From an uncultured Chlorobiota bacterium (GTDB lineage Bacteria; Bacteroidota; Bacteroidia; Bacteroidales; JAADGE01), in assembly GCA_947311255.1 (NCBI GenBank), contig CAMZKL010000022.1, positions 80,225 to 144,224 of the forward strand: a stretch of DNA of 64,000 nucleotides, read 5' to 3'. Of the stretch, positions 223-35,065 are shown piece by piece. Each line of letters begins with the position of its first letter. The first letter of the stretch is position 1. The notes beneath the pieces were generated by a model. The model saw nothing but the letters and a program-made list of their open reading frames with translations. It searched no databases and was not told where the DNA came from. Position numbers and translations under genes: made by a program.

Positions 223-362
223 CTAGATTTAATTTAACTTGCAATTATCAACTCTTATGCCACATAAATTTTTATGAAGAAAAGACAGTTTATTTATAAA
301 TATTAACTTTAATATGTCAAAATGTCAAAAAAAACAACTGAACCTGAGAACTTATTTTTAAT

Positions 363-2459: not shown

Positions 2460-2475
2460 TTTTAAAAATTTAGTT

Positions 2476-3945
2476 TTATTGTATTTTCCACTCAGCACCC
2501 TCTCTTGTATCTTTAACAATAATGCCGAGTTCTTTAAGTTCATCTCTAATTTTATCGGAAGTTGCAAAATCTTTATTCTTTTTTGCCTCTGTTCTTAAAT
2601 TTAATAAAAGATTCATAACATCTTTTAGTTTTTCATCTTCTGAGGAAGATTTTTCTTCGTTTTCCAGACCAAGAATTTCAAAAACAATGTCGTTATAAAG
2701 TTTTTGCAAGAAAGATAAATCTTCTTTGTTTATTGTTTCTTTTCCGGCATTTATTGAATTTATAATTTTAACTCCATCAAATAGATGTGCAATTAAAATT
2801 GGAGTATTCATATCGTCATCCAAAGCTTTAAATATTTTTTCTTTAATATCTTGTACATTAACAGAACTTAAAGAACTAATTTTTAAATTGCTTAAAGTTT
2901 TAACAGCATCCATAAGTCTTTTATAGCCTTTTTCAGATGCTTGTAATGCTTTATTTGAAAAATCTAGAGTGCTTCTGTAATGTGCTTGTAAAATAAAAAA
3001 TCTAACAATCATAGGACCGTATGCTTGTTCCAAAAGTTTATGTTTTCCGGAAAACATTTCATCTAGCATAATAAAATTGTTGAGTGATTTACTCATTTTT
3101 TGTCCGTCAATAGTAATTAGGTTATTATGCATCCAATATTTTACTGCATCTTCTCCTTTTGCAGCTTTTGATTGTGCAATTTCGCACTCATGATGAGGGA
3201 ATTGCAAATCAAGACCTCCTCCGTGAATGTCAAATTTATCCCCCAAATATTTTGTACTCATAACAGAACATTCCAAATGCCATCCTGGAAATCCATCGCT
3301 CCATTTTGAAGGCCAACGCATAATATGCTCAGGTTCTGCCTTTTTCCAAAGTGCAAAATCGAATGAGTTTTTTTTATCGCTTTGCCCTGCTAGTATTCTT
3401 GTATTATTTTGCAAATCTTCCAAAACTCTGCCCGAAAGTTTTCCGTAATTATTTGTTTCTGAATATTTTGCGACATCAAAATAAACCGAACCGTTAACTT
3501 CATAGGCAAAACCGTTTTTTAAAATTTCTTCAACCATTTCTGCCTGTTCTATAATATGGGCAGATGCATGTGGCTCAATACTCGGAGGTAATGTGTTAAG
3601 TTGCTCCATGTTTTTATGGTAGCTGTTCGTATATTTTTGAACAATCTCCATCGGCTCAACTTGGTCTAGCTTTGCTTTTTTTGCAATTTTATCTTCCCCT
3701 GCATCTGCATCGTTTACAAGATGCCCTACATCTGTAATGTTTCTAACATAGCGAACTTTATATCCGACATATTTCAAATATCTGAAAAGCACATCAAAGG
3801 TAATTGCCGGGCGAGCATGTCCCAAATGAGAATCGCCGTAAACCGTAGGTCCGCAGACGTACATTCCCACAAAAGGAGGATTTAACGGTTCGAATAACTC
3901 TTTTTTTCTTGTAAGGGTGTTGTATATTGTTAAATTATTTTTCAT
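2476..3945 (-). CDS. cysS: cysteine--tRNA ligase
   Basis: Class I signature HLGHAR (HIGH-type) and KMSKS both present; length 489 aa is typical. Confidence 0.95.
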
Positions 3946-4053
3946 AATCTTACTTTTTTATTCTTACATTACATTGCTAAATTGTTTAATTGATAATTTA
4001 TTTTATCAGCCAATCAACAGGTTGTCAACTCTGCTAGTCACATCATCTACTAA

Positions 4054-4404
4054 TCATTTTGTCATTGTAATACTAACTTTTTTAATTTTTCCGCCCATTG
4101 GGGGATTCATTTTCGACAGCTTTATGCTTACCGATTTCATATTATCAAGATTTTCATATAATGCATGTAAAATTCGACCTGCAATATTTTCTAATAGATT
4201 AGATTTTTTTTGCATTTCTGATTTTATAATTTTATAAGCCGTTTGATAATTTACTGCATCTTCGATTTTATCACTTTCCGCAGCCTTTCGGCAATCGGTT
4301 TCAATTTTCAAATCAACCAAAAAACGATTGCCTACAATTTGTTCCTCTTTGTAATGCCCGTGATAGGCATAAAATTCCATTCCTTCAATCTCAATAAATC
4401 CCAT
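4054..4404 (-). CDS. folB: dihydroneopterin aldolase
   Basis: 116 aa. N-terminus IEIEGMEFYAYHGHYKEEQIVGNRFLVDL is characteristic of FolB. Confidence 0.85.
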   Translation of the reverse strand: MGFIEIEGMEFYAYHGHYKEEQIVGNRFLVDLKIETDCRKAAESDKIEDAVNYQTAYKIIKSEMQKKSNLLENIAGRILHALYENLDNMKSVSIKLSKMNPPMGGKIKKVSITMTK

Positions 4405-4468
4405 TTCTGAGTTTTTAAAATTTATAATTTACAAATGTATTAAATAATAATATGAAAATATTTAGAAT

Positions 4469-5641
4469 CTAAAAAAGATTCAATTGCTTTTTAGCATTAT
4501 TGAAGAATATTTCTAATTTTTTAGCAGCTTCTATAAGTGTTTCGTCAGTTTTAGCAAAACAAAATCTAATAGTTTTTGTATTTGACTCATCATGATAAAA
4601 AGAAGACATTGGAATTCCTGCAATTCCAAATTTCTTAATAAGCCGTTCAGCTAATTGAAAATCGTTTTCATCTGTATAATTAGAGAAATTTACTGTTTGA
4701 AAATATGTACCTCCAACGGGTTTCACTTCAAATCCAATATTTGTCAATAATTCATTAAACAAATCTCTTTTTTTTTGATAAAAACTTGAAAGTTTTAAAT
4801 ACTCAACTTCTTTGTCTAGATATTCTGCTATTGCATATTGAATAGGTGTATTTGCGGCAAATACAGTAAATTGATGTACTTTTCTTATTTCTGATGTAAT
4901 TTTTTCAGGAGCAATAAAATAACCGAGTTTCCAGCCGGTTGCATGATACATTTTTCCAAAAGAATAAACAATAATACTTCTTTCTGCAAGTTCAGGATAT
5001 TTAGAAATACTATTATGTTGTTTTTTATCAAAAATTATATGCTCATATACCTCATCACTAAGAATTAAGATATTGGTTCCTGTAACAACTTTTTTTAATT
5101 TATTAATATCTTCCTCAGAAAAAACTTTTCCGGAAGGATTATGAGGAGAATTAATAATTATTAGTCTTGTTTTTGAATTAATAGTCTTATTTACTGCTTC
5201 CCAATCAATTGAATAATTGGGATGTTTGAGTTTAATATATATTGGTCTTCCTCCGTTATATTTAACAACTGGTGCATAACTATCATAAGCGGGCTCAAAA
5301 ATTATAACCTCATCACCTTCTCTAATAATTGTAGAAATTGCAGAATGTAGTGCTTGTGTTCCTCCTGCAGTAATAGTTATTTCTGTTTCAGGATTGTATT
5401 TTCTTCCGTATAATTTTTCAGTTTTTTCAGACAACTTTTCTCTTAAAGGTAATATTCCTTGCATAGGGGCGTATTGATTATGCCCATTTTGCATTGCTTT
5501 ATAGACAAGAGAAGCCAATTCTTTTGATATTTCAAAATTTGGAAAGCCTTGAGACAAGTTAATTGCATTATGTTCTTTCGCCATTGCAGACATTACAGCA
5601 AAAACAGAAGTTTTAATATTTGGAATCTTAGGTTTTATCAT
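4469..5641 (-). CDS. class I/II PLP-dependent aminotransferase (methionine aminotransferase/YbdL-like)
   Basis: LSQGFPNF, NSPHNPSG and SFGKMYHATGWKLGY (PLP lysine) motifs. Start moved to ATG 5641 because the ORF-track TTG at 5662 lies inside a consensus -7 box (rc TACTTTTG, 5660-5667). Confidence 0.85.
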   Translation of the reverse strand: MIKPKIPNIKTSVFAVMSAMAKEHNAINLSQGFPNFEISKELASLVYKAMQNGHNQYAPMQGILPLREKLSEKTEKLYGRKYNPETEITITAGGTQALHSAISTIIREGDEVIIFEPAYDSYAPVVKYNGGRPIYIKLKHPNYSIDWEAVNKTINSKTRLIIINSPHNPSGKVFSEEDINKLKKVVTGTNILILSDEVYEHIIFDKKQHNSISKYPELAERSIIVYSFGKMYHATGWKLGYFIAPEKITSEIRKVHQFTVFAANTPIQYAIAEYLDKEVEYLKLSSFYQKKRDLFNELLTNIGFEVKPVGGTYFQTVNFSNYTDENDFQLAERLIKKFGIAGIPMSSFYHDESNTKTIRFCFAKTDETLIEAAKKLEIFFNNAKKQLNLF

Positions 5642-5659
5642 TTTGAAAAAATTGAGGGA

Positions 5660-5667
5660 CAAAAGTA
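5660..5667 (-). promoter_or_regulatory. Bacteroidota-type -7 box TACTTTTG for the aminotransferase gene
   Basis: Exact TAnnTTTG match on the minus strand, about 19 nt upstream of ATG 5641. Confidence 0.45.
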
Positions 5668-5912
5668 AAAAAATATCTCTCTCCTAAAATATTTTTTTGA
5701 TAAAATTAAAGATTAAAATCCTTAAACACAGATTAGGGCAATTCCAGGGCAAACTAATACTCTTATTTTTTAATATAATTTAAGGGGACTTCTAAAAATT
5801 TAGTAATCTTAACTATAATTTTTACAGCCTAAATAATTAGAAATACACATTTTTATCTATGTTTTTTTACAAATAAATTTATTATTGAGTTAAATATAAA
5901 AAGCTCAGATAC

Positions 5913-6085
5913 ATGAAACACCCACAACAAAGATTTTGACACCCAAGGGCATGACTATAATTCAGCACAATGATTATGTGCAAAAGAAAGCAAGTATTCC
6001 TATGTGCAGAGCAAAATAAATATTAATAAACAATAAAAACCCAAACAACTTACTCAATATCAGTTAATTATAAAAATTTAGACAC
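5913..6085 (+). promoter_or_regulatory. conserved leader cassette, copy B (orphan)
   Basis: Aligns by eye with rc(19055-19225) and rc(20637-20800). The 95-nt core 5913-6007 matches copy A at 77 of 95 positions. The AACTTAyTCAATATCArTTA box and the TAGA..ATG end are also shared. It ends at an ATG (6086) that opens only a 43-codon ORF. Confidence 0.7.
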
Positions 6086-6122
6086 ATGAAAAAGACTTCT
6101 GTCAAGAATTTTTTAACCAAAT

Positions 6123-6761
6123 TCATTCTTTCAAAAAAGGATTTGTTAATTTTTCTTTACCTATTGATGTTTCTATTCCATGTCCTGGATATACAACTGT
6201 TTCATCATCCAATTTAAAAAGTTTAGTTTTAATTTGAGATATTAAAGTATCATAATTTCCTCCAGGCAAATCTGTTCTTCCAATACTTCCGTTAAATAAA
6301 ACATCACCAACAATTGCAATTTTTACCTTTCTGTTAAAAAAGACCAAACTTCCGGCAGAATGACCGGGTATATGCAAAATCTCCAATTCTGAGAAACCAA
6401 ATTTTACAGTTTCACCTTCTTTTAAAAACTTTCTAATTGGGTAAGGTTCTTCCATATGAACACCATATATATTAGAAGCATTTAGAGCATTTGTATTATT
6501 GTACTCTTCTTCTTTATGAGCTTCCATTTCTAAATTAAAAGTATCAGAAACAAATTTACTTCCAAAAACATGATCAAGATGACAATGAGTATTTAATAAC
6601 CTTACGGGTTTTAAGTTATTCTCTTTTATAAATTTTAATAAATATTCCTGTTCTTGCTTATTATTACAGGCAGAATCAACTATTACACATTCATTAGACT
6701 TATCTGTAACAATATAAGTATTTACTTCAAAAGGGCTAAAAACTAAGCGGTGTATCTGCAT
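6123..6761 (-). CDS. MBL-fold metallo-hydrolase (glyoxalase II-like)
   Basis: HCHLDH (HxHxDH) zinc motif, later PGHS and TDLPGG motifs; 212 aa. Confidence 0.85.
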   Translation of the reverse strand: MQIHRLVFSPFEVNTYIVTDKSNECVIVDSACNNKQEQEYLLKFIKENNLKPVRLLNTHCHLDHVFGSKFVSDTFNLEMEAHKEEEYNNTNALNASNIYGVHMEEPYPIRKFLKEGETVKFGFSELEILHIPGHSAGSLVFFNRKVKIAIVGDVLFNGSIGRTDLPGGNYDTLISQIKTKLFKLDDETVVYPGHGIETSIGKEKLTNPFLKE

Positions 6762-7031
6762 TTATATATTTTTTTACTGTAATAGTATTAAAAAACGATT
6801 AATTATTAAAATATTTTTAAATCCATTAGATTCCTTATCCGTTAAAATTTGTTAAAAGAAACAAAACAAGACTTAGTGTATAGCATTGGAATACTGAATA
6901 TTACACTTATATATTAAGTAAAAGACTTATTTTTAAAATAGCAGAAAATCATTAATAATTTTTTTTTTCATCAAGATTTAATTTTCTTTGCAACTCACAA
7001 TCAAAATATTTATTAATTAAAATTTATTATT

Positions 7032-7268
7032 ATGTCAGACATTGCCTCAAGAGTAAAAGCAATTATTATCGACAAATTAGGAGTAGAAGAAAGTGAAGTA
7101 ACAACAGAAGCAAGTTTCACTGATGATTTAGGTGCAGATTCTTTAGATACTGTTGAGTTAATCATGGAATTTGAAAAAGAATTCAATATTGCAATTCCGG
7201 ATGACAAAGCAGAAACAATTGCTACGGTAGGTGACGCTGTAAGTTACATCGAAGAGAATTCAAAATAA
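7032..7268 (+). CDS. acpP: acyl carrier protein
   Basis: 78 aa with the [17 protein letters not shown] phosphopantetheine-attachment motif. Confidence 0.96.
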
Positions 7269-7340
7269 ATTTTTTCTGAGGGTTATATTATAAAAATATA
7301 ATCCTCATTCTCTTTTTTTAATTAAAAAAGACAAACAAAT

Positions 7341-8591
7341 ATGGAATTAAAACGAGTTGTTGTAACTGGTTTGGGAACAATTAATGCTCTCGGACATAAT
7401 CTCAAAGAAACTTGGGACAATATGCTTGATGGAGTTAGTGGTGCAGGACCAATTACTCATTTTGATGCAAGTAAATTTAAAACACAATTTGCTTGTGAGG
7501 TTAAAAATTACGACCCCCTTAAATATTTTAAAAAACCTGTTGCACGAAAAATGGATAAATTCACGCAATTTGCCATAATTGCTGCTGATGAAGCAGTAGC
7601 TGATGCAGGTTTTAATTTAGATAAAATTAATTTAGATAGATCTGGTGTTATTTGGGCATCTGGAATTGGGGGATTACAAACTTTTAGAGATGAAATTGTA
7701 GATTACACTCAAAATGATTTTACCCCAAGATTTAACCCATTTTTTATTCCTAAAATGATAGCAGATATTGCTGCTGGACATATTTCAATAAAATATCAGT
7801 TTAGAGGTCCTAATTATGCAACAGTTTCTGCTTGTGCATCTTCATCGCATGCACTAATTGATGCATATAATCTTATTAGATTAGGCAAAGCAGATATTTT
7901 TATTGCAGGAGGCTCTGAACATGCTGTTACAGAAGCTGGTGTAGGAGGTTTTAATTCTATGAGAGCACTTTCAACTAGAAATGATGATCCAAAAACAGCA
8001 TCAAGACCTTTTGATGCAGGCAGAGATGGATTTGTAATTGGAGATGGTGGAGCTGCTTTAATTCTTGAAGAATACGAACACGCAAAAAAACGTGGTGCTA
8101 AAATATATGCAGAATTTGCAGGTGGAGGTATGACAGCTGATGCACACCATATTACAGCTCCTCATCCAGAAGGCAGAGGTGCAACAATGGTAATGAAAGT
8201 TGCAATTGAAGATGCCGAATTAAAGCCTGAAGATATTGATTATGTTAACCTACATGGTACTTCAACCGGCTTAGGAGATATTGCAGAAACAAAGGCTGTT
8301 GTTAATGTTTTTGGAGAACATGCCTATAAATTAAGTATAAGTTCAACAAAGTCTATGACAGGACATTTACTTGGGGCAACAGGAGCAATGGAAGCTCTTG
8401 CTTCAATTATGGCAATAAAAACAGGAAATATTCCTCCAACAATTAATCATTTTGAATTAGAACCTTTAATTGATTCAAAACTTGATTTTACTTTTAATAA
8501 GCCTAAAAAAAGAAATGTAAGAGCAGCATTAAGCAATACTTTTGGTTTTGGAGGCCATAATGCTTCTTTAATTTTTAAAAAATTTGAATAA
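7341..8591 (+). CDS. fabF: beta-ketoacyl-ACP synthase II
   Basis: 416 aa. Active-site ACASS Cys, HGTST and GHLLGA(T/A)G motifs; sits downstream of acpP. Confidence 0.95.
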   Translation: MELKRVVVTGLGTINALGHNLKETWDNMLDGVSGAGPITHFDASKFKTQFACEVKNYDPLKYFKKPVARKMDKFTQFAIIAADEAVADAGFNLDKINLDRSGVIWASGIGGLQTFRDEIVDYTQNDFTPRFNPFFIPKMIADIAAGHISIKYQFRGPNYATVSACASSSHALIDAYNLIRLGKADIFIAGGSEHAVTEAGVGGFNSMRALSTRNDDPKTASRPFDAGRDGFVIGDGGAALILEEYEHAKKRGAKIYAEFAGGGMTADAHHITAPHPEGRGATMVMKVAIEDAELKPEDIDYVNLHGTSTGLGDIAETKAVVNVFGEHAYKLSISSTKSMTGHLLGATGAMEALASIMAIKTGNIPPTINHFELEPLIDSKLDFTFNKPKKRNVRAALSNTFGFGGHNASLIFKKFE

Positions 8592-8600
8592 GAGAATATT

Positions 8601-9329
8601 TTGACTCGTTTTTCAAAAAAAAATCCTTGTATTAATGCAAAATATAAAAGATTTTTAAAAAATCTCTTAGGGTTTAAACCTAAAGATATAAATCTTTATA
8701 TTCTTGCTTTTACTCATAAATCTTCTGATTTAAATGATTGTCTTGAAGATTCTTCTTTAAACAATGAGCGATTAGAATACCTAGGCGATGCCATTTTAGA
8801 TGCTGTTATCAGTGATTTGCTTTACAAAAGATTCCCAACAGCAGATGAGGGTTTCTTAACTCAAATGAGAACAAAAATTGTTAACGGTAAAAAATTAGCT
8901 GAACTTTCTCATAAATTAAACATTAATAAATTAATGTTAGTAAAATCTGAAAAGAATCTTTCAGAACGTATTTATGAAGACGCTTTTGAAGCACTTATTG
9001 GTGCAATATATATAGATAGGGGTTTTAAATATGCAAAACGCTTTGTTTTTCAAAAAATTATGGTTGAACATATCGATTTAAACAAACTAAAATATATAGA
9101 CACTAATTTTAAAAGTAAAATAATTGAATGGTCTCAGAAACATAAAATAAATATTGATTTTTGCACTAATGCAGTTTCTGAAAACTCAAAAGAATTTCTT
9201 TGCGAATTAAAAATATCAGATAAAGTTATCGGAAAAGGAAAAGCATTTTCTAAAAAAACAGCAGAGCAATTTGCTTCAAAAGATGGTTTAGAAAAGATTA
9301 AAAATGGTTTTTTTAATCTAGTCATTTAA
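8601..9329 (+). CDS. rnc: ribonuclease III
   Basis: NERLEYLGDAILD signature and a C-terminal dsRBD-like region. Apparent TTG start. Confidence 0.9.
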   Translation: MTRFSKKNPCINAKYKRFLKNLLGFKPKDINLYILAFTHKSSDLNDCLEDSSLNNERLEYLGDAILDAVISDLLYKRFPTADEGFLTQMRTKIVNGKKLAELSHKLNINKLMLVKSEKNLSERIYEDAFEALIGAIYIDRGFKYAKRFVFQKIMVEHIDLNKLKYIDTNFKSKIIEWSQKHKINIDFCTNAVSENSKEFLCELKISDKVIGKGKAFSKKTAEQFASKDGLEKIKNGFFNLVI

Positions 9330-10525: not shown

Positions 10526-12043
10526 ATGAGCAAAAAAGCATTACTTATGATACTCGATGGTTGGGGTATTGGAAATAAAACAAAATCAGATATTATAAGT
10601 CAAGGAAGCACACCCTACATTGACAGTTTGAAAAACAAATACCCTAATTCTAAGTTACTTACAGACGGAGAAAATGTAGGTTTACCGAAAGGGCAAATGG
10701 GCAACTCCGAAGTAGGACACCTAAATATTGGTGCTGGAAGAGTGGTTTTTCAAGATTTAGTAAAAATAAACAAAGCCGTTGAAGACAATTCAATTTCTAA
10801 TAATCCTGTTTTAACAAAAGCATTTCAATATGCAAAAGAAAATAATAAGGCTGTTCATTTTCTGGGATTAATTTCTGATGGAGGAGTACATTCTTCGCAA
10901 AAACATCTTTATAAACTATGTGATATAACAAAAGATTACGGATTGAAAGATGTATTTATCCATGCAATTACTGACGGAAGAGATACTGACCCACATAGTG
11001 GGAAAGGATATTTACAGGAACTTATAAATCACTTAAACACTTCTAATGGGCAAATTGCAAGTCTTATAGGAAGATATTATACAATGGACAGGGATAAACG
11101 ATGGGACAGAATTAAAAAAGGCTATGATCTAATGACTGCCGGTATTGGAAAAAACTCTACAAATATAATTAATGCTATTTCAAAATCTTATGAAGAGGGT
11201 TTTACGGATGAATTTATAAATCCGGTAGTTTTTGTTGATGAAAATAAAAACCCTATTGGAATAATTAAAGACGAAGATGTAGTAGTTTGTTTTAATTTTA
11301 GAACTGATAGGTTAAGACAAATAACAACTGTTTTAACACAAAAAAGTATGCCGGAATATAATATGAATACTTTTGATTTGCATTATCTTACAATGACAAG
11401 ATATGATAAAAATTTTAAAAACGTTAATATAATTTTCAATAAAGAAAATGTAAAAAACACAATAGGCGAATTATTGGCAAAATCCGGTAAGAAACAATTA
11501 AGAATTGCCGAAACTGAAAAATTTGCTCATGTAACATTTTTTTTCTCGGGAGGGCAAGATGCTGAATTTCAGGGAGAAAAAAGAATACTAGTTCCTTCGC
11601 CAAAAGTAGCAACTTATGATTTGCAACCCGAAATGAGTGCATACTTAGTTGCCGAAAAACTTGTTGCCGAACTAAAAAAACAAGAACATGATTTCATTTG
11701 CTTGAATTTTGCAAACGGAGATATGGTTGGACATACAGGAATTGTTAAAGCAATATTAAAAGCTGTTAAAGCTGTTGACGAAAATGTTAAAAATGTTGTA
11801 GAAACTGCCAAAGAAAACGGTTATTCTGTTATGATTATTGCTGACCATGGAAATGCCGACTATGCAGTTAATGATGATGGTTCTCCAAATACTGCACATT
11901 CGTTAAATCCGGTGCCATGTATTTTGGTTGATGAAGATTATTCAGAAATAAAGAACGGTATTCTTGCAGATGTTGCTCCTACCCTTCTAAAAATTATGGG
12001 AATGGAAATTCCAAAGGAAATGACGGGAAAAATTTTAATTTAA
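10526..12043 (+). CDS. gpmI: 2,3-bisphosphoglycerate-independent phosphoglycerate mutase
   Basis: 505 aa. [22 protein letters not shown] and ADHGNAD motifs are typical of iPGM. Confidence 0.95.
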
Positions 12044-12044
12044 A

Positions 12045-12629
12045 ATGAATTTCCTTGCACACATATACCTATCCGGCGACAATGACGATATTAAATTTGG
12101 AAATTTTATAGGAGATTGGGTTAAAGGAAATAAGTGGAACAGATATACCAAGGATATTAGAAAAGGTATTCTTTTACATAGAGAAATTGACAGTTACACA
12201 GATAAACATTCTGTTGTAAGAAAAAGTGTCCATCGTCTGCAACCTGCATACGGAAAATATGCCGGAGTAGCAGTAGATATTTTATACGATCATTTTCTTG
12301 CAAAAAACTGGAAGAATTATTGCGAAGAAGATTTAAAAAGCTATGTAATTGATTTTCATTACCTTGTTCTTGAAAGATTGGGCAAAATTCCTAAAAAAGG
12401 AAGACGTTTTGCATTTCCTTTTATGCGAAAGAAGCGACTTATTTGTTATGCAAATTTATCTTGTTTTGAAGAAGTCCTTGAAAAAATGGCAATTTATACT
12501 TCAATGCCGGATAAAGTTAATGAAGCAATGGCAATAGTTAGTAGAGAATACAATTTATTTTTCGAAGATTTTAAAGAATTTTTTCCTGACTTGCAGGCAT
12601 TTTCAAAAACTTTTTTGGATAAAGATTAA
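12045..12629 (+). CDS. acpH: ACP phosphodiesterase family protein
   Basis: N-terminus MNFLAHIYLSGDNDDIKFGNFIGDWVKG is characteristic of AcpH. Starts 1 nt after the gpmI stop. Confidence 0.8.
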   Translation: MNFLAHIYLSGDNDDIKFGNFIGDWVKGNKWNRYTKDIRKGILLHREIDSYTDKHSVVRKSVHRLQPAYGKYAGVAVDILYDHFLAKNWKNYCEEDLKSYVIDFHYLVLERLGKIPKKGRRFAFPFMRKKRLICYANLSCFEEVLEKMAIYTSMPDKVNEAMAIVSREYNLFFEDFKEFFPDLQAFSKTFLDKD

Positions 12630-13354: not shown

Positions 13355-14584
13355 CTATAAAAACTCTAAATTAAAAGCATGTCTGTCTAATGTTTCATCT
13401 ATAATTTGTACATTATTTGAACTACTTACAGTTCCAATTATTGGTTTATTATTAGAAATTCTCTTTGCGCTAAAAATAACATTATTTTCTGTATCAACTG
13501 CCATTGCATAAATTTCAAATTCATTGTTATTAAAAAGTGCTTCATAATTAAAATCAAAATCAAATTTGAAAATATTTTTTTCAGTTGCAAGATAAAAATG
13601 GTCTGCTGATTTTTTAACATCAAAAGCATTTTCGTATTCTGGAAAATAAATCGCTGCATTATCTGTATTTTGCAGAGTTTCAGAAAACAAAATTGCACCT
13701 TTTGATAGTTTATTTATAAACAATACTCTATTATTTAATTTTACTTTTAGATAAAATGCAGAGGATAAAGAGAATCCACCATAAAAATCAATTCCTTCAA
13801 TAATATTAGTAATTGTATAAGATGAGTTATTAGTGTCTATTTTATCTATATAGTTATTTGTATTTGTACCTGTTCTATATATGTAAAATGAATTATCATT
13901 TCCTAACCAAAAGTATTTAATATTACCTGAAATTTCTGTATCAAGCGGAATTATATCTCCGGTAGGCTTTTTCAAATAAAAATTATTGGAAGTTGAAGAA
14001 TACAATATAAAACCATCATTATTTATGCTATATTCATTAACATCATCATTATTGTATGTTGAAACTTCTTCACTCTGTGAGTAAGTTTGAGTAATTTTAT
14101 AAATTTTTGAATAATCTAAAAAATAAAAATTATTATTGTATGTTTGGATGCTTGATATAGAATTTGAAATATTTTCAGAAATATCAAAAATTTTCCCTGT
14201 TGATTTCTCAATAACACTCAAACCTGCATTTGCACGAATTTTTCCTTCATTATCCCATAACTTTGAGTTATAATTGTCAATTAATAAAAACTTATTTGCA
14301 TTAATATATTTATATACAAATAGAAAAGCTTCTCTTGGGTTTTCATAAATAGTAGTCCCGTCAGTATTTATTAAATCTATTCTTTTAATTTCATTTGAAT
14401 TAAGAATTTTATAAAAGTTTCCTTTTGTGGTAAAAGTTTCATTGGTATAAAAAACAGCCTTTGCATCGGTTAAATCTGCTCTTGGGCTAAAAACTTTTTT
14501 TTCGGGTATTGGTTTGCTTGGCTTTTTGCAGTTTATTGTAACAATAGTAAATAAAGATAATATTAGAATGCTAACTTGTTTCAT
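13355..14584 (-). CDS. hypothetical lipoprotein (repeat-rich, possibly beta-propeller-like)
   Basis: Signal plus lipobox-like LFTIVTINC. Asn/Tyr-rich repetitive body. No family recognised. Confidence 0.6.
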   Translation of the reverse strand: MKQVSILILSLFTIVTINCKKPSKPIPEKKVFSPRADLTDAKAVFYTNETFTTKGNFYKILNSNEIKRIDLINTDGTTIYENPREAFLFVYKYINANKFLLIDNYNSKLWDNEGKIRANAGLSVIEKSTGKIFDISENISNSISSIQTYNNNFYFLDYSKIYKITQTYSQSEEVSTYNNDDVNEYSINNDGFILYSSTSNNFYLKKPTGDIIPLDTEISGNIKYFWLGNDNSFYIYRTGTNTNNYIDKIDTNNSSYTITNIIEGIDFYGGFSLSSAFYLKVKLNNRVLFINKLSKGAILFSETLQNTDNAAIYFPEYENAFDVKKSADHFYLATEKNIFKFDFDFNYEALFNNNEFEIYAMAVDTENNVIFSAKRISNNKPIIGTVSSSNNVQIIDETLDRHAFNLEFL

Positions 14585-18274: not shown

Positions 18275-19054
18275 CTAACGATTAAAAGGTTTTCCTAATG
18301 TGTTTTTAAGATTTTTGTATTTATTTAAATCACATTTTATTGTACTGAAACCAATTTTTACACGAATTTTAACAGGAATAAAATTCCCATCATCAGAAAA
18401 CCAAACTTGCATATCTTTTTCTTTTTTAAAAGGACTTTCTTGATCTAAAACAGGAACGAACCTCATACATCTAATTTTTCCGAACTTTGTTCTGACTTTT
18501 TCAGTTTCTTTGTATTTTACTTTAATTGTATAAAGCTTTTCATCAAAGAAAGTAGTAAGATTTATTATATCATTCTTTTTAAATTCTTTTTTAAAAATAC
18601 TCCTTCTTGCATAGTAAAAAGCAGAAAGAATATCTAATGTGCCAGCAGGTACTTTATGTTCGCCAGATTTTAGACTTATTACTTTGTTGTTATCTCTGTC
18701 AAAAATTATTTCATTATATCTTTTATATGAATTTTCATTAATATCTCTAATTGCTTGCAAGGGCATACCTGTTGATATATCAATATAACTTTCGTATCTG
18801 TCTCTAACATTAGCAACACTACCAACTAATCCAGATGTTTTAGCAAGTGCTTTCACATGAAAGTACCAATCATATCCTACTTGTTCTAAGTCTATCTTCA
18901 TTTCTGCATATCCTCCGCTAATAATTCCGTATTTGACTTTAAATTTAAGATATTCTCCTGAATTAAATGCTGTGTTTATTATCGGTATAGAATCATTCTG
19001 AGAAAATGATGATATTGAAAAAAGGATAAATGATAATATTATTAGTTTTTTCAT
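18275..19054 (-). CDS. DUF3108-like secreted protein
   Basis: Signal peptide MKKLIILSFILFSISSFSQ. GEYLKFKVKYGIISGGYAEMKI and overall length recall DUF3108. This assignment is from memory only. Confidence 0.6.
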   Translation of the reverse strand: MKKLIILSFILFSISSFSQNDSIPIINTAFNSGEYLKFKVKYGIISGGYAEMKIDLEQVGYDWYFHVKALAKTSGLVGSVANVRDRYESYIDISTGMPLQAIRDINENSYKRYNEIIFDRDNNKVISLKSGEHKVPAGTLDILSAFYYARRSIFKKEFKKNDIINLTTFFDEKLYTIKVKYKETEKVRTKFGKIRCMRFVPVLDQESPFKKEKDMQVWFSDDGNFIPVKIRVKIGFSTIKCDLNKYKNLKNTLGKPFNR

Positions 19055-19225
19055 GCTTCTAGGATTGTATGATTAATTGATATTGAATAAGTTGTATAAA
19101 AATTTATATTTAAAATAGTTACGCTGTTCAGCACATAGGAACACTTTCTTTTTTCTGCAAGTAATCATTGTGCTAAAAAATAGTCATCTCCTTGGGTATC
19201 AAATTTTTTGACGTTGATGTTTCAT
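19055..19225 (-). promoter_or_regulatory. conserved leader cassette, copy A (upstream of the DUF3108-like gene)
   Basis: See copy B. The core 19131-19225 (minus strand) begins ATGAAACAT and ends TTCCTATGTGC. The homology runs on to the start codon at 19054. Confidence 0.7.
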
Positions 19226-19295
19226 TTGTCTAAAAATCTTAAAAATTTGAAAATGTAAAATTAAAAGTTAATTTGTATTTAATAAATATGAACAA

Positions 19296-19366
19296 ATAAA
19301 TTGCATTATTTTTAGTCCATCTCTTTGAGTATCAAAAATATTTGTTATTGGTAATTGGCATTTCAT
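19296..19366 (-). repeat. degenerate half copy of the leader cassette (A2)
   Basis: Minus strand reads ATGAAATGCC...TTTTTGATACTCAAAGAGATGGACTA. This parallels ATGAAACATC...AATTTGATACCCAAGGAGATGACTA of copy A, with a longer spacer. Confidence 0.4.
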
Positions 19367-19420
19367 TTTTAATCGTTGTATAACTAAAACTATTCTTATT
19401 ACAAAAATATTAATTAAAAT

Positions 19421-19450
19421 AAAAAAAGCGGGAAAACCCGCTTTTTTTTT
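19421..19450 (-). terminator. rho-independent terminator (bidirectional shape) after the OmpA-family gene
   Basis: AGCGGG-AAAA-CCCGCT hairpin flanked by an A-run on one side and a T-run on the other, 14 nt downstream of the stop at 19464. Confidence 0.75.
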
Positions 19451-19463
19451 GTTAATGTATATA

Positions 19464-20636
19464 TTAAAACTTAACAATTTTAATTTCTACTCTTCTGTTG
19501 AATCCTTCTTCTTCTTCTGTTTCTGGTATAGGGTATATTTCATTCTTACTTCCCATTCCCTCAATTCCAATTCTTGATGTGGAAATTTTATTATCTACTA
19601 AATACTTTCTTATAACTTCTGCCCTGTTAGTTGATAATTCAAAATCAACATCGGTACTTGGGAATAATCCATTTGTATGACCTTGTAGGATAATTTCTGC
19701 TTTATCATTAAACTTCATAAACATCAATAGTTTCTTTTTAACATATTCTGATTCAGAAGTAATTATTATATCATTAGGTTTGAAATAGATAACTCCAAGA
19801 GTTTCGTTATTATATCCTTTTTTTACTTTATCTAATTTAAAATGTACTTGTTTATTATCTAGCTTATTTGCTTCTGAAGTTGAGAAAAGCTTAAAATCAG
19901 GGAAATAGTTTTCAGAATATGCACTTAATTCATACTTCGGAAAGGTATTAGATTGATTATTTATAAGAATATCAATTTCATAATATCCTTTTTTTTCAGT
20001 CTGAGAAGTAACATATGCATTATTATTTCTTAGGTTTCGCCATTTTATTTCTGCTTTAACTGGTTTATCATTCTTAGCATTTACAACCCTGCCACTTAAC
20101 TTGCTGGTTTTAAGTTGCTTAAATATAATAGTGTGTCCTTTGCCATCTTTGTAAAGATTATTCAGAGCTAAGTAAAAAACATCTCCTTCATTTGTCATTA
20201 CTCCTTTTTCATAGTCTTTATTATTGCCATTATATGATAATCCGGTGGTTCCTTTAATATTTTCTTGAGGACTAAAATTAGATCTTATCGGTGTTATTCT
20301 GTTATTTTTATAATCTTCACAAAAGTTTGGACTTCCTTTATAAAGAATAAAATCATAATTGTCTTTTGGGTTTTGAGGAACTATATCAAAAAGTAAAATG
20401 CCATCATTTTGAATAGTAAATTTATACCATGTTGGATGTTTTGCTAGGTCAAAACTATTACTATTTTCAGATTTCATTTCAATTGGTGCAGTTGTAGGTC
20501 CAAAAATTGTAAATCTTGTTATATCATATGCTTGTTCACATGTACTTGTATTTGAAATATCTACATATGTTTGAGAAGTACTTGAAATAGAAAGTACTAA
20601 AAAGAGTAATAGCGAAATAAAAGATATTTTTTTCAT
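19464..20636 (-). CDS. OmpA-family protein with N-terminal secreted domains
   Basis: Signal peptide, a CarboxypepD_reg-like segment (LSGRVVNAKNDKPVKAEI), and a C-terminal OmpA-like peptidoglycan-binding domain ending NRRVEIKIVKF. Confidence 0.8.
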   Translation of the reverse strand: MKKISFISLLLFLVLSISSTSQTYVDISNTSTCEQAYDITRFTIFGPTTAPIEMKSENSNSFDLAKHPTWYKFTIQNDGILLFDIVPQNPKDNYDFILYKGSPNFCEDYKNNRITPIRSNFSPQENIKGTTGLSYNGNNKDYEKGVMTNEGDVFYLALNNLYKDGKGHTIIFKQLKTSKLSGRVVNAKNDKPVKAEIKWRNLRNNNAYVTSQTEKKGYYEIDILINNQSNTFPKYELSAYSENYFPDFKLFSTSEANKLDNKQVHFKLDKVKKGYNNETLGVIYFKPNDIIITSESEYVKKKLLMFMKFNDKAEIILQGHTNGLFPSTDVDFELSTNRAEVIRKYLVDNKISTSRIGIEGMGSKNEIYPIPETEEEEGFNRRVEIKIVKF

Positions 20637-20800
20637 ATTTCTAGATTTGTCTAAATAATTGATGTTAAATAAGTTATTTGTGTATTTATATTAATTTTGT
20701 TATTCGGCAAATAGGAATACTTGTTATGTTCTGCAAGAAATCAATGTGCTAGATTATAGTTCTGCCATTGGGAATCAAAATTTCTTTTATAGTGTTTCAT
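20637..20800 (-). promoter_or_regulatory. conserved leader cassette, copy C (upstream of the OmpA-family gene)
   Basis: Core 20707-20800 (minus strand) begins ATGAAACAC and ends TTCCTATTTGC. The flank down to ATG 20636 also aligns with copy A (TTCTAG.ATTTGT..TAATTGAT.TT.AATAAGTT). Confidence 0.7.
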
Positions 20801-20832
20801 AAGCATATTTTTTAGTTTTGTTAGAACTATGT

Positions 20833-21819
20833 TTAACTATTTTTCAGATACACTTTTGCAGTTTTAACAATTGAATTGTCAAAAGTTCTTACCCTTAACA
20901 AATATATTCCTGCTGCTACCCCTGACACGTTTATTATTATGTTATTAGTTAAATAAACATTTTTTAAAATAGATTTTCCTGAAATATCAACAAGTTCACA
21001 GATTAAAGGTGTTCTTTGATCTTCATCAAAAAATATTTTTATAGTATTATTGTCAACAATGGGCTTTAATACTTTTTCTTTTTCTTCTGGTTTTATGTTA
21101 TTTTTGCTAATCCTAAAATTTATTCTTTGGCTTTCAGAATTGTCTTTAACATTAACTTCATATTCATGTGTTTTCACACCTGTAATTTCAGGATGAATGT
21201 AATATTTTCCTTCCGAAAGATATTCAAAATTATAAGTTCCGTCAATTTCATTTGCTATTCTAAAATCCATTGGAACTTTATCTTTGTTAAGCAATAGTAT
21301 AGGAACAGGAATGTTTACAGTACTACTATAGCCTTGATTGAAAAATAATTTGCCTGAAATTGAACAATGCCCGTAAAATGGTTCGCTATAAGAGTATAGG
21401 CTTATATTTATATTTTCTATATTCTTATTGAAAACATTCTCACTTGCTTCTTCCCAAAGATAGGCTCCTCCAGAATATGTAGGTAAGTATTTTGGATAAT
21501 ATAAAAAATCGAAATCTAATTCCGGTATTACATATAATGAGTATTTTCCAAATTCTAAATCTTTGAACTTAAAATTTCCATCTTCCACAATACAACTAAT
21601 TTCCGAAGAGTATGACTTTTTAGAATTTGATATTAAATAAACTTTTCCATTTTGTAATAACTTTTCTCCATAAAATACATTTCCTGAAAAAGTATTATAA
21701 TTTTCGTTATTTTGCACATTTGTTTCATTAGCAACAATATGAGAATACATTTGCCCATAGCTTAATATTTCCGAAAATACTAGAGTTATTAGTACTATTA
21801 TTTTGAACAAAGTTTGCAT
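20833..21819 (-). CDS. T9SS type A sorting domain-containing protein
   Basis: Signal peptide. The C-terminal ~75 aa (ICELVDISGKSILKN...AAGIYLLRVRT...KVYLKNS) fits the Por/T9SS type A CTD pattern. Confidence 0.75.
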   Translation of the reverse strand: MQTLFKIIVLITLVFSEILSYGQMYSHIVANETNVQNNENYNTFSGNVFYGEKLLQNGKVYLISNSKKSYSSEISCIVEDGNFKFKDLEFGKYSLYVIPELDFDFLYYPKYLPTYSGGAYLWEEASENVFNKNIENINISLYSYSEPFYGHCSISGKLFFNQGYSSTVNIPVPILLLNKDKVPMDFRIANEIDGTYNFEYLSEGKYYIHPEITGVKTHEYEVNVKDNSESQRINFRISKNNIKPEEKEKVLKPIVDNNTIKIFFDEDQRTPLICELVDISGKSILKNVYLTNNIIINVSGVAAGIYLLRVRTFDNSIVKTAKVYLKNS

Positions 21820-23540: not shown

Positions 23541-24134
23541 CTATTTCTTTGTTTTAAGTTTTGTTAATGCTATTTTATATAGTATTTTTTCTAATTTTTT
23601 TCTTGCTCTCATTAATTGAGATTTTGAAGTCCCAATACTTATTTTTAATTCTTTTGCAATTTCTTTATGTTTAAATCCGTCAATAACATATAAATTAAAA
23701 ACAGTTCTAAATCCACTTGGCAAATTTGAAACTGCTTCTAAAATATCATCTTGTGATAGGTTTGCATTTTCAATAATTGACTTTGGGTTTTTAAGGTCTA
23801 AATATTTATTTTCTTCTTCATTGTCATAAAATGATTTTATATTTTCTATTTCATCCGATACAATTTCTTTTTTGTTTGTTCTTAACTGCATCAATGCAGT
23901 ATTAATTGTAATTCTTTTTATCCAACCCTCAAAAGAACCTTTTCCTTTATACTGTTTTATTTTAGTAAAAATAGTTAAAAATGAATCTTGAAGTACGTCT
24001 TCAGCTTTCACTTTATTTTTCATAAATCTTAAACATATACCAAATAGAACAGAAGAATATTTATTAAAAATATATTCCTGAGCCTTTTCGTCTCCTTTTT
24101 TACACTGTCTTATTATCTTATTGCTGACAGACAT
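23541..24134 (-). CDS. ECF-type RNA polymerase sigma-70 family factor
   Basis: Region 2 (DVLQDSFLTIFTKIKQYKGKGSFEGWIKRITINTA) and region 4 HTH (FKHKEIAKELKISIGTSKSQLMRARKKL). Start moved to ATG 24134 (MSVSNKII). Confidence 0.88.
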   Translation of the reverse strand: MSVSNKIIRQCKKGDEKAQEYIFNKYSSVLFGICLRFMKNKVKAEDVLQDSFLTIFTKIKQYKGKGSFEGWIKRITINTALMQLRTNKKEIVSDEIENIKSFYDNEEENKYLDLKNPKSIIENANLSQDDILEAVSNLPSGFRTVFNLYVIDGFKHKEIAKELKISIGTSKSQLMRARKKLEKILYKIALTKLKTKK

Positions 24135-24181
24135 TGGTTGTATTTTATAGATGCAACACAAAATAAGGGTTGCAATTTTTA

Positions 24182-28850: not shown

Positions 28851-28883
28851 AAAGACGCTCATATTGGGGCGTCTTTTTTTTTT
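28851..28883 (+). terminator. rho-independent terminator after sucD
   Basis: AGACGC ... GCGTCT hairpin (28853-28874) followed by about 10 T residues. Confidence 0.8.
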
Positions 28884-29169
28884 GAACCTTCTTCCCAAAA
28901 TATGAATATAATATCATAAAATGTCTAGGTTGAGAGTATTGTAAATATCTGAAAATATCACAATCCTGTTAATTAAATAACTAATCCTCACTGACTCTTA
29001 AATATAAATACTTTAAATCTGACAGTTAAATCCTTATACAGTAAAAAAAAACAAATAGCTGGCATACGACTTCTCTAAATAAGTATAAACTAGGTAATCT
29101 TTATTAATATAGTTGCATCCTGAATTGCAGATTTAAGCAAATAAAAAACTTTTTAGAGTGAGCTAAATA

Positions 29170-32328: not shown

Positions 32329-32697
32329 ATGTATATTAAAGATACAAAAGGGAGTCCGTCTATTTACATTTCAATAGAAGAATGTAAATTTGAAATAAAA
32401 GGCTCGTCATATTCAGAATCTGTTGACAAATTATTTGATGATATAATTAATTTGGTTGAGAAAGAAATCCCAAATCTTTCTTGTGAATTGGATTGTATTT
32501 TTAAACTTTATGTTATAAGTAGTATAACTCAAAAGAAAATTCTATACTTAGTTTCAAGGCTAAATAACTTTTTTAAATCTGGCAAGAAAATAAAAATTTC
32601 ATGGTATGTCTATGATGATGAAGACAATCTCGAATTTGCAGAAGAATTAATTGATATTTTTAATATTCCAATAAAAATTTTTGATGAAGCGGAATAG
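32329..32697 (+). CDS. divergent DUF1987/SiaC-like protein
   Basis: 122 aa. Collinear with the two clearer paralogs in this window: ...FEIKGSSYSES...LF.DI...V; KISWYVYDDEDNLEFAEE vs INWHYEEDDEDMLEAGED. The YFNTSSSK region is replaced by LYVISSITQKK. Confidence 0.6.
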   Translation: MYIKDTKGSPSIYISIEECKFEIKGSSYSESVDKLFDDIINLVEKEIPNLSCELDCIFKLYVISSITQKKILYLVSRLNNFFKSGKKIKISWYVYDDEDNLEFAEELIDIFNIPIKIFDEAE

Positions 32698-32752: not shown

Positions 32753-35065
32753 TTGAAAAAAATAAAATCATTATTTAAAATTAATATTAACAATGAGATT
32801 AAAAGAAAAAAATTTTTAGTTTTTCTTTTCTCTTTTACTGCATTAATTCCACTTACAATGTTTGGAGTGGGAGGACTAATGTCAGGAAAGATAGTATATA
32901 GTATATACATTTTCATATTCTGGATAATTACATTTTCTAATATTATCTTTCTTTATTTTTCAAATAAAGTTAATATCTCTGCACATATTATTATTATATT
33001 AATGTTTATTTTTTCTATAATAATATTTACTTTTCTGGGTGTAGGTGTTGCTGATTTATTTTGGTTTTATATTTTTTCAACTTTAGCAATATCACTAACA
33101 AATTATAAAAGAGGTGCTATTTACTCTTTGTTTTTTTTACTAACATCAATATCAATCTACCTTTTTTTTCCTGAACTTCTAACAAATAGTTATACTCCAA
33201 GTTTAATATTAAGATTTGTTGTTTCTTATATAATTTTAAATATCCTGATTATAACCATTGAATATTCAAGGGAGAAAACTCAAAAAAACTTAAAAAAAAC
33301 TTTATATGACTTAAAGAAAACTAACGATGAGCTTACAATATCTGACAATGAACAAAAATTAATAAATGATGAATTGTTTTTAGTGAACAAAAAATTAAAA
33401 GAAAATGAAAAACGTTTAAATTTAGCTCAAAAAGCTGGAAAAATTGGAACTTGGGAATGGAATGTTAAAACCGGCGATGTTATTTGGACTGATATAACAT
33501 ATGAAATTTTTGGGAAAGAAAATACAGGAAAAAAACTAAAATATGAAGAGTTTTTAAACTATATTTATCAAAAAGACACAGATAGAATCCTAAAAGAATT
33601 AGATTTAGCAATTAAAAAGAATACCAAAATTCACAAAACAGAATATCGTATTATAAAAGGCAATAAAATCCACTACATAGATGCAACTTATGAAATAAGA
33701 AAAGACAAAAAAGGTAATCTTATCCAAATGGTTGGTGTTCTTCAAGATATAACTGAAATAAAAAATACGGAAAAAGAAATAAAACATAAAAACAAACAAC
33801 TTTCTGCAAAAACAGAAGAGCTAAAACAAAACAATGAAGTACTTTTAAATGCACATGAAAAAATTGCAAGCCAATATAAATTATTAAAAGAAACGATTAA
33901 AAAATATGATTTGTTAGCAAACTCCATGAGTGACTTTATATGGATGCTGTCTTTTGATATTGAACCATTATATATAAGCCCTTCTTGTAAAAAATTCTTG
34001 GGCTATAGTATTGAAGAAATTAAAACATTCGGTCTAGCAAAAATTCACACAAAAGAATCTCAACTCAAAATTAACAAATTAATTGAAAACACAGTAGAAT
34101 TGAGAAACAATCCGGATGCCGCAAAAGGAATAACAACTGAAATTGAATATATACATAAAGATGGACATATAATTATTGCGGAAGTTATGGCTTATCTTAT
34201 TTATGATAAAAACAACAAAGCTATTTCAATAGGAGGAATTTCAAGAGACATTACACAAAGAAGGCAAACAGAATTGGAATTGGCAGAAAGCAATAAAAAA
34301 ATTACTTCTGCACATAAAGACATATTAGACAATCTTAGATATGCAAAAAAAATACAAGATGCACTTTTATCGAAAACAGAATTGATAGACAAACTTTTTA
34401 ATAACTATTTTCTAATATTTCAACAAAAATTCTCGGTTGGAGGAGATTTTTACTATGTAAATAAAGTAAAAGAGCAAATAATATTTGCGGTTGGTGATTG
34501 CACAGGACATGGAATTTCGGGAGGCTTCCTTAGTATGATTGCTATTACCTATCTTCATGAAATTGCAAGAACAGGAAGTGGAGAAAACACAGGAAAAGCA
34601 TTAGATTTAATACGCCAACGCTTTAAAAAAACAAACAAAACATTTGGAAGCAATAATCCTGATGGCTTTAATATTTCTCTTTGCAATGTAGATTCTAAAA
34701 CAAATATTATGAGATATTCGGGGGCTTATCATCCTTTAATAATAATTCGTAATAACGAGTTAATTGAATATAAAGCAAATAGAAACCCAATAGGTTTTCA
34801 TTATAATGAAACTAATTTTAAAACCATAGAAATTCAGCTTCAAAAAAATGATAAGATATATCTTTTCTCTGACGGATATTACGACCAAATAAACCCCGAA
34901 GGGAAGAAAATAGGTAAAAAACAATTTAAAAACATTATTACAGAAAATAGTTCATTATCTTTTAAAGATCAAGAGATAATATTCAGAGAATATTTTAATA
35001 ACTGGCAACAGGAACAAGAACAAATTGATGATGTTACTTTTTTAGGAATAAATTGGGAAACATAA
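32753..35065 (+). CDS. membrane sensor PP2C (SpoIIE-type) Ser/Thr phosphatase with coiled coil and two PAS domains (SiaA-like role)
   Basis: About 6 N-terminal TM helices, a coiled coil, two PAS-like blocks (GTWEWNV..., ...SRDITQRRQTE), and a C-terminal PP2C (GGDFYY, GDCTGHGISGGFLSMI, FSDGYYDQ, DDVTFLGI). Apparent TTG start. Confidence 0.85.
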   Translation: MKKIKSLFKININNEIKRKKFLVFLFSFTALIPLTMFGVGGLMSGKIVYSIYIFIFWIITFSNIIFLYFSNKVNISAHIIIILMFIFSIIIFTFLGVGVADLFWFYIFSTLAISLTNYKRGAIYSLFFLLTSISIYLFFPELLTNSYTPSLILRFVVSYIILNILIITIEYSREKTQKNLKKTLYDLKKTNDELTISDNEQKLINDELFLVNKKLKENEKRLNLAQKAGKIGTWEWNVKTGDVIWTDITYEIFGKENTGKKLKYEEFLNYIYQKDTDRILKELDLAIKKNTKIHKTEYRIIKGNKIHYIDATYEIRKDKKGNLIQMVGVLQDITEIKNTEKEIKHKNKQLSAKTEELKQNNEVLLNAHEKIASQYKLLKETIKKYDLLANSMSDFIWMLSFDIEPLYISPSCKKFLGYSIEEIKTFGLAKIHTKESQLKINKLIENTVELRNNPDAAKGITTEIEYIHKDGHIIIAEVMAYLIYDKNNKAISIGGISRDITQRRQTELELAESNKKITSAHKDILDNLRYAKKIQDALLSKTELIDKLFNNYFLIFQQKFSVGGDFYYVNKVKEQIIFAVGDCTGHGISGGFLSMIAITYLHEIARTGSGENTGKALDLIRQRFKKTNKTFGSNNPDGFNISLCNVDSKTNIMRYSGAYHPLIIIRNNELIEYKANRNPIGFHYNETNFKTIEIQLQKNDKIYLFSDGYYDQINPEGKKIGKKQFKNIITENSSLSFKDQEIIFREYFNNWQQEQEQIDDVTFLGINWET

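Follow-up and report, generated by a model that had tools for sequence, protein, structure and literature searches.

Why should two envelope genes that encode unrelated proteins carry the same non-coding DNA directly upstream of their start codons? The question is raised by a 64,000-nucleotide (nt) stretch from an uncultured Chlorobiota bacterium (assembly GCA_947311255.1, contig CAMZKL010000022.1, positions 80,225 to 144,224), referred to here as the window, to which all coordinates apply unless another contig is named. An initial annotation had noted collinear similarity over about 165-170 nt upstream of a DUF3108 gene and an OmpA-family gene, and had reasoned that such leaders are either constrained or recently copied. 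The similarity is indeed present, and the two downstream proteins have nothing in common but a signal peptide, as the annotation had also observed. Of its two explanations copying stands, as does the idea of a portable unit, which it had listed among its candidates as a promoter cassette; constraint is not supported. Orthologous sites in relatives are empty and copies precede other genes. The shared DNA probably belongs to a short non-autonomous repeat family of 164-173 base pairs (bp) that has been copied into new sites within one species-level lineage of uncultured Bacteroidota, a reading to which a probability of roughly 60% may be given. The copies lie in the first codons of several genes for secreted proteins and bring a replacement start codon with them.

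A family of short repeat units

Three collinear units of 164-173 nt and one decayed copy are found in the window. Unit A (19055-19225, minus strand, 171 nt) opens with ATGAAACAT and abuts the ATG (19052-19054) of the DUF3108 gene (18275-19054, minus strand), whose 259-amino-acid (aa) product has the signal peptide MKKLIILSFILFSISSFSQ and matches Pfam at E = 4e-40. Unit B (20637-20800, minus strand, 164 nt) lies within the first codons of the OmpA-family gene (19464-20636, minus strand; 390 aa, with a signal peptide), the last gene of an operon headed by an extracytoplasmic function (ECF) sigma factor. Unit C (5913-6085, plus strand, 173 nt) runs to an ATGAAAAAG; the annotation had recognized this copy and ended it too early, at 6007. 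Unit D (19226-19366, minus strand, 141 nt) is decayed and stands in tandem directly upstream of A, making the DUF3108 gene host to both.

Over a core of 95 nt, 76 positions are identical between A and B, 73 between B and C, and 77 between A and C, the last being the figure already counted by hand in the annotation; identity among whole units A, B and C is 73-75%. An nhmmer hidden Markov model built from the copies recovers the three window units at E = 1e-50, 4e-50 and 7e-42 and returns nothing further of significance in the 64 kilobases (kb). A fixed degenerate core pattern of 44 nt matches three times in the window against 0.00 expected, and a repeat search ranks C/A and C/B as its longest two repeat pairs, with no other substantial repeats in the 64 kb. 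The G+C content of the units is 25-30%. Unit D resembles the others at z = 2.9-5.4 relative to shuffled sequences; a better-preserved version of it in a sister genome, which keeps the CCAAGGGCATGA and TTATTCCTGCATC boxes, confirms D as a genuine copy.

The boundaries are the same throughout the family. Every unit has a 5' box ATGAAAC (ATTAAAC in copy E, described below) and a 3' end ATGAAAA, the right end reading ...TAGA(C/A)A(C/T)ATGAAAA, so that all copies are flanked on both sides by the same hexamer, ATGAAA, followed by C on the 5' side and by A on the 3' side. Terminal inverted repeats are absent: the unit ends CACC... and ...GACAC are not complementary, and the repeat search shows no inverted pair within a unit.

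Copies also occur in relatives, which are labelled as Bacteroidales or Chlorobi metagenome-assembled genomes (MAGs) and were mostly reached by protein-guided retrieval. A strict core pattern occurs at one place in 185,579 species genomes, on contig L001 of MAG GCA_947311445.1 ("uncultured Chlorobi bacterium TAG_MAG_00004", hereafter the TAG genome); its four matches in JGI metagenomes all fall by chance in G+C-rich or coding DNA. The TAG genome is 93-95% identical to the window over most syntenic DNA, and GCA_054023215.1 is 99.66% identical over 21 kb. The L001 copy lies upstream of a gene for a 136-aa DUF1573 protein with a signal peptide, and this copy, F, precedes the DUF1573 gene in both sister genomes (L001 and L019). 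Copy E precedes a peptidase C1 gene in the TAG genome (L010 14239-14410), its 5' box separated by 16 nt from the stop codon of the gene before it, and the TAG genome also has its own copy at the A site. All gene-associated copies precede genes for signal-peptide proteins and share the orientation of the gene.

More distant variants exist as well. A short form of the unit, flanked by a perfect 27-nt direct repeat, precedes the OmpA gene in L012 (OmpA protein 70% identical), and in L008, a 71% relative, the start of a copy follows the OmpA terminator and is ended by the end of the contig. Ahead of the short variant in L012, about 107 nt at 3743-3870 open with ATGAAATATC, at a distance of 9 nt from the stop codon upstream; this DNA may be a decayed older unit, comparable to D.

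Empty sites in related genomes

Whether the units are old leaders or later additions can be read from orthologous sites. On eight contigs with 66-94% OmpA nucleotide or protein identity (L006, L007, L008, L009, L013, L016, L017 and L018) the gene order is that of the window, and the gap before the OmpA gene is 18-34 nt, compared with 196 nt in the window. The OmpA proteins of the first six are 66-85% identical to that of the window, while L017 and L018, with a gap of 32 nt, reach 93-94% nucleotide identity. Before the DUF3108 gene the gap is 106-114 nt in L006, L013, L014 and L016 and 409 nt in the window. The spacer between an MBL-fold gene and an aminotransferase gene, where unit C lies, measures 178 nt in L010 and L011 against 460 nt in the window; these two contigs are 95-98% identical to the window in their alignable overlap, save that L010 is just 82.6% identical on the MBL side.

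Unit B is missing from the orthologous site on eight contigs, and unit C from two genomes of the same species group; one genome of 93-94% identity has neither. Orthologous sites without units mark the units as additions to the ancestral arrangement, not as conserved leaders, and against the ancestral gene order the unit is an insertion. The insertion at OmpA is later than the split from L007, whose OmpA protein is 85% identical and whose gene start reads ATGAAAAAAG.

Exact junctions and the replaced start codon

At about 94% identity to the window, L017 and L018 allow the junction of B to be read to the base. The empty site is CTTATGAAAC|AAATATC, and the window has CTTATGAAACA[...]ATGAAAA|AAATATC with an insert of 164 nt. 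In context, the empty site reads ...AATCTT ATGAAAC|AAATATCTTTT and the OmpA protein starts MKQISF; the occupied site reads ...ATGCTT ATGAAACA[CTAT...CTAGAAAT ATGAAAA]AAATATCTTTT and the protein starts MKKISF. This places the insert after ATGAAAC with an ambiguity of at most 1 nt. The ATGAAACA box is the original start of the host gene, not part of a shared leader as the annotation had taken it. The old OmpA start, ATGAAAC, is at 20794-20800 and the new start codon at 20634-20636. As the last seven bases of the unit rebuild an in-frame start with an A-rich initiation context, the OmpA protein differs only in having K for Q at residue 3. An upstream open reading frame (ORF) of 5-19 codons now begins at the former start; in unit A it has 8 codons and would encode MKHQRQKI*.

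The same junction logic probably holds for the DUF1573 gene. In L001 the 5' flank of the unit is ATGAAAATGAAACA, matching the MKMKQIIL N-terminus of P0245, an 84%-identical DUF1573 ortholog, and the gene that carries the unit starts MKKIIL. At the DUF3108 locus, the 5' ATGAAA of unit D (19361-19366) occupies the expected place of the original start codon. Hosts share no more of an ORF than its first 7 nt, and the annotation's caveat that the copies might be flanks of a segmental duplication that includes coding sequence does not apply.

How could such an arrangement arise? The constant C after the 5' hexamer and the constant A after the 3' hexamer fit a 5' box that is the target, left outside the insert, and a 3' box that is the element's own end. 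Insertion would then be sequence-specific for ATGAAAC^A, a geometry known from single-strand HUH transposons of the IS200/IS605 type. A target followed by an insertion, with neither inverted repeats nor a duplication, is found at OmpA and, presumably, at DUF1573. We tentatively propose, at less than an even chance, a site-specific mobile element that targets ORF starts (ATGAAAC^A, typical of the MKQ or MKH starts of signal-peptide proteins), restores the start codon with its right end, and is moved in trans by a single-strand (HUH) transposase or a hairpin-recognising recombinase. Such an element would colonise the 5' ends of genes for secreted proteins without inactivating them, and each old start would become an upstream ORF. 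For the host, the unit is most likely neutral baggage: about 165 nt of leader per unit, an upstream ORF and a hairpin.

The main alternative views the same junctions as the outcome of passive copying without dedicated machinery. Short-homology ectopic gene conversion or template switching between ATGAAA(C/A)AAAT sequences would carry the unit into genes that start ATGAAACAAAT, and slippage or unequal exchange between the ATGAAA(C/A)A direct repeats that bound each unit would expand and contract it locally. Both recipient starts (OmpA, and DUF1573 as judged from P0245) read ATGAAACAAATA, which matches the 5' box of the unit at 8/8 positions and the 3' box plus gene start at 11/12. Homology of 8-12 nt is, however, far below what RecA-type exchange usually needs. 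Several independent insertions would have to have occurred in a lineage just 6% diverged, the C site has no such homology, and unit B, at 70-74% identity to every other known copy, would have come from a donor that has not been seen. Passive copying explains repeated precise insertions less well than targeting does, and is on the whole unlikely.

The window contains one further gene start with the proposed target, at 13355-14584 (409 aa, no Pfam match), which begins ATGAAACAAG (MKQVS). It is the sole unoccupied gene start of this kind; the other 14 free ATGAAACA sites lie inside ORFs.

Tandem arrays and block C

Unit C is the exception to the pattern seen at OmpA. It belongs to a block of 244 nt (5885-6128, plus strand) in which the full unit (5913-6085) is preceded by a unit tail of 28 nt and followed by a unit head of 43 nt. 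The first 28 nt resemble the unit tail at 22/28 positions, a score reached by 0/2000 shuffles, and the last 43 nt resemble the unit head at 26/43, reached by 1/2000. With a tail-like and a head-like flank, block C corresponds to 1.4 units of a tandem array. A resemblance between GAGTTAAATAT and ATTTTTTAACC that might be taken for terminal inverted repeats around the block is better explained as unit tail plus unit head. In the MBL-fold gene (6123-6761, minus strand) the block precisely separates the final sense codon from the stop, changing the end of the protein from ...FLK* to ...FLKE*, and no target duplication accompanies it. Downstream of copy C there is only a 43-codon ORF running antisense into the end of the MBL-fold gene, and no real gene.

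Taken together, the D-A pair, block C and the 27-nt repeat of L012 indicate that arrays form and that at least some of the copying is not cleanly site-specific. Such arrays (D-A and the 1.4 units of block C) could come from repeated insertion or from multimeric intermediates. They are also what passive copying by slippage or unequal exchange would give, and here, as with the divergence of unit A discussed below, passive copying explains the data better than targeted insertion does.

The spacer that holds block C is unusual in two further respects. A stretch of about 55 nt at 5735-5800 is specific to the window and missing in L010 and L011; it contains TTTTTAGAAGTC, which is faintly like the unit tail. 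Moreover, identity between the TAG genome and the window falls from 95.5% (L010 6573-12315, window 1-5745) to 82.6% (L010 3347-6502, window 6122-9277) exactly at this spacer; L011 is 97.5% identical on both sides. The drop could reflect a recombination breakpoint or a chimeric MAG.

Divergence and structure of the copies

The unit could instead be a cis-regulatory leader of the host, in which the upstream ORF (MKHxxQxx*) and the central hairpin control the translation or mRNA stability of genes for envelope or secreted proteins, and would then be kept for its usefulness. Several features agree with this idea: the placement of every gene-associated copy before a signal-peptide protein in gene orientation, an upstream ORF of 8 codons common to A and its TAG counterpart, to C and to F in both genomes, and a hairpin that is stable in 5/7 copies. 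The two sister genomes agree at 95% of positions in copy F, compared with about 87-89% at intergenic and third-codon sites of another region; its own, mostly coding surroundings show the same 95%.

Other copies behave differently. Identity of the TAG genome to the window is 96.6%, 98.3% and 89.3% at codon positions 1, 2 and 3 and 87.4% in intergenic DNA; copy A is just 75% identical between the two, compared with 89% for third codon positions. In its 5' part, the copy that TAG has at the A site resembles the F/C subfamily, which, together with the divergence of A, suggests replacement or conversion, not conservation. This is what gene conversion under passive copying would produce. In copy E the ATG, TTTGA and AGCACAATGATT boxes are all mutated. 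These patterns of divergence do not suit a tightly constrained regulatory sequence. The MKHxxQxx* peptide was set aside as a leader peptide: its ATG is the old host start, which is ATT in E, and the frame is shifted in B and has 5 codons in L008 and L012.

Turning to structure, Rfam at gathering score matches only a tRNA in the whole window, and at E <= 10 the region 18900-21000 gives only chance matches around the OmpA terminator. The tRNA gene (63747-63820, plus strand; 61.8 bits) is the sole Rfam match in the window. The fold of the whole unit is no better than that of shuffled sequences (z = -0.3 to -1.25), and neither end of the unit has a conserved stem as far as can be read from the sequence. 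RNAalifold on 7 copies does predict a hairpin in the middle of the unit (columns 49-100 of 175), with 17 pairs; 0/17 pairs are compensatory and the covariation term is positive, +0.8. Taken alone, this imperfect hairpin of 52-56 nt (A, 19127-19177, minus strand; C, 5961-6011, plus strand; B, 20703-20753, minus strand, degenerate) is more stable than shuffles in 5/7 copies, at z = -1.9 to -3.8. The values are -2.7 for A and -1.9 for C, against +0.1 for B and -0.3 for the TAG copy of F, in which it is lost. The AGCACA...TGTGCT pairing of the annotation is part of this real 52-nt hairpin, which B and TAG F have lost. A smaller CCC-AA-GGG hairpin is not conserved (CCT in L001, GGCT in L019).

The hairpin may be recognised by a mobility machinery and decay in some resident copies. 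As a regulatory RNA, which the annotation had considered, the unit finds no Rfam family, no covariation and no conservation at orthologous positions: apart from the different variants in L008 and L012, none of the more distant relatives examined has a unit at the orthologous site, the hairpin is lost in two copies, and unit C has no gene. A cis-regulatory leader is quite improbable.

Promoters at the occupied sites

The annotation had also proposed a shared promoter or operator. A portable cassette of this kind, read for instance by the ECF sigma factor encoded at 23541-24161, has a few points in its favour: copy C has perfect TTGACA and TATAAT hexamers, unit B lies in the ECF-sigma operon, and even L012, with its diverged copy, retains the conserved ATGACTAWAAYTCA and GTGTTCCTATGTG boxes. 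The hexamers, however, are 14 nt apart where the scan accepts 16-18 nt, and they vary between copies; the sigma-70 scan stays at chance level in both regions. The Bacteroidetes-type -7 box TAnnTTTG, which many window genes have 21-44 nt before their ATG, does not occur inside A, B or C, and by-eye readings of sigma-54, sigma-70 and ECF promoters gave no consistent spacing. In addition, the 5' box belongs to the host gene and is no -35 element.

Near the DUF3108 gene, the TAnnTTTG scan finds one box inside decayed D and one outside, TATTTTTG at 19402-19409 (minus strand). The latter appears to be the native promoter box: it lies 43 nt before the ATGAAA of D, within the 21-44 nt seen at other window genes, and is now about 350 nt before the start codon in use. 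The native upstream region is limited on its 5' side by the intrinsic terminator of the OmpA-family gene (19421-19448, minus strand), which is conserved in relatives. Units D and A are downstream of this box, and for unit B, which sits within an operon, a new promoter would be superfluous. On the most economical reading, the units would merely lengthen the transcribed 5' leader and provide no promoter. A promoter cassette is the least likely of the explanations, with only a very small chance of being correct.

Weighing targeted insertion

Several observations weigh against a dedicated, start-codon-targeting element. The units lack terminal inverted repeats. No transposase or recombinase domain was found in the window ORFs scanned against Pfam or in the precomputed Pfam tables of L010, L017, L019 and L021; under passive copying, no transposase gene would be needed in the window. 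Only about eight loci have been seen altogether, with a single place in 185,579 genomes for the strict core pattern and only chance matches in JGI metagenomes. The edges of block C do not coincide with the ATGAAA boundaries and its site is not ATGAAAC, so that it is no clean site-specific event, and the perfect repeat of L012 fits duplication or recombination better than transposition.

The polarity of the OmpA comparison can be questioned too. Among OmpA orthologs residue 3 is Q only in the TAG genome and K or R in all others, and the C at position 7 of the TAG gene is unique. The empty TAG site could be the footprint of a loss through slippage between the ATGAAA repeats, in which case B would be older. 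It is possible, alternatively, that the common ancestor of the window and TAG genomes gained the C and that the gene thereby became a target.

Similarity among leaders within one genome is no sign of regulatory constraint unless the orthologous sites of relatives also carry the sequence. Short repeats beside bacterial genes are common, whereas it is unusual for one to land in the first codons and carry a replacement start. Real targeting would amount to a natural swap of the 5' leader, with gain of an upstream ORF and without loss of the gene. It would also be a source of annotation errors in MAGs, in the form of wrong starts and spurious "conserved leaders", and could point the way to a DNA insertion activity of Bacteroidota that is new and target-specific.

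Neighbouring genes and other variable segments

The operon around the OmpA gene runs in the order ECF sigma factor, three genes, a gene with a type IX secretion tail, OmpA, terminator and DUF3108, and this order is kept in L006, L008, L012, L013, L016, L017 and L021. Type IX secretion tails and Bacteroidetes-type promoters are found in the lineage. Elsewhere, genomes of the TAG lineage (L011 3036-4655 and L017 18494-20152) have an extra gene between those for ACP phosphodiesterase and phosphoglycerate mutase; its product has 539-552 aa and a type IX secretion tail. In the window (12043-12045) and in L021 the two flanking genes are 1 nt apart. A segment of about 286 nt at 28880-29165, between the succinyl-CoA ligase alpha gene and an AAT-family gene, whose 3' ends converge, is present in the 99.7% twin L021 and missing in the TAG genome (a 29-nt gap in L017); it lies behind a terminator and has no relation to the start-codon repeat.

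The window further contains three SiaC-family phosphoprotein paralogs in 64 kb (32329-32697, 40931-41311 and 54776-55207). One adjoins a PAS-SpoIIE phosphatase (32753-35065) and another a DUF6272 protein (40331-40882), which suggests several partner-switching modules.

Comparison with known systems

Plasmid and phage BLAST searches and a viral pattern scan gave no similarity to the unit, and the literature on a described element of this kind yielded only unrelated papers on miniature inverted-repeat transposable elements (MITEs). The unit also differs from two well-known classes of short sequence. In an inverton, inverted repeats surround a promoter segment; the flanks of the unit are direct repeats. 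Repetitive extragenic palindromic (REP) sequences and bacterial interspersed mosaic elements (BIMEs) are G+C-rich palindromes of 20-40 nt that usually follow genes, whereas the unit has 164-173 nt, a G+C content of 25-30% and a place at gene starts.

Rickettsia palindromic elements are short repeats tolerated where they overlap ORFs; they insert in frame and are translated, and the reading frame survives. The present unit is instead not translated into protein: it displaces a start codon and supplies a new one. Integron cassettes with their attC sites are alike in being short units with an imperfect palindrome, repeated core bounds, tandem arrays and a plausible circular intermediate. The unit differs from them in having no GTTRRRY core, integrase or attI platform, and its copies are dispersed at gene starts, not gathered in one array.

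Classical MITEs, such as Correia/NEMIS of Neisseria and those of P. gingivalis (PMC4596501), resemble the unit in several respects. They too are non-coding units of 100-300 bp dispersed beside genes, their presence varies between close strains, and they are able to change the 5' leader of a neighbour. The unit departs from them in having no terminal inverted repeats, in its constant ATGAAA flank where MITEs have a duplicated arbitrary target, and in its strict gene orientation and start-codon replacement.

The closest geometry is that of non-autonomous elements of the IS200/IS605 type. Small size, the absence of terminal inverted repeats, an apparent lack of target-site duplications, and insertion on the 3' side of a short specific target that does not itself become part of the element would be shared, as would a different right-end cleavage sequence of the element's own, a dependence on a DNA hairpin and a possible seamless loss. 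On the other side, these elements have subterminal hairpins at both ends, and the single central hairpin of the unit counts against the proposed kinship. The apparent target of the unit, at 7 nt or more, exceeds theirs in length and falls on a start codon, and no gene for a Y1 (HUH) TnpA was seen in about 150 kb of retrieved DNA. Since the geometry is closest but hairpin placement differs, the IS200/IS605 family serves as a working analogy, not as a classification. Short interspersed repeats are already known from bacteria; what sets this one apart is its unusual relationship to start codons.

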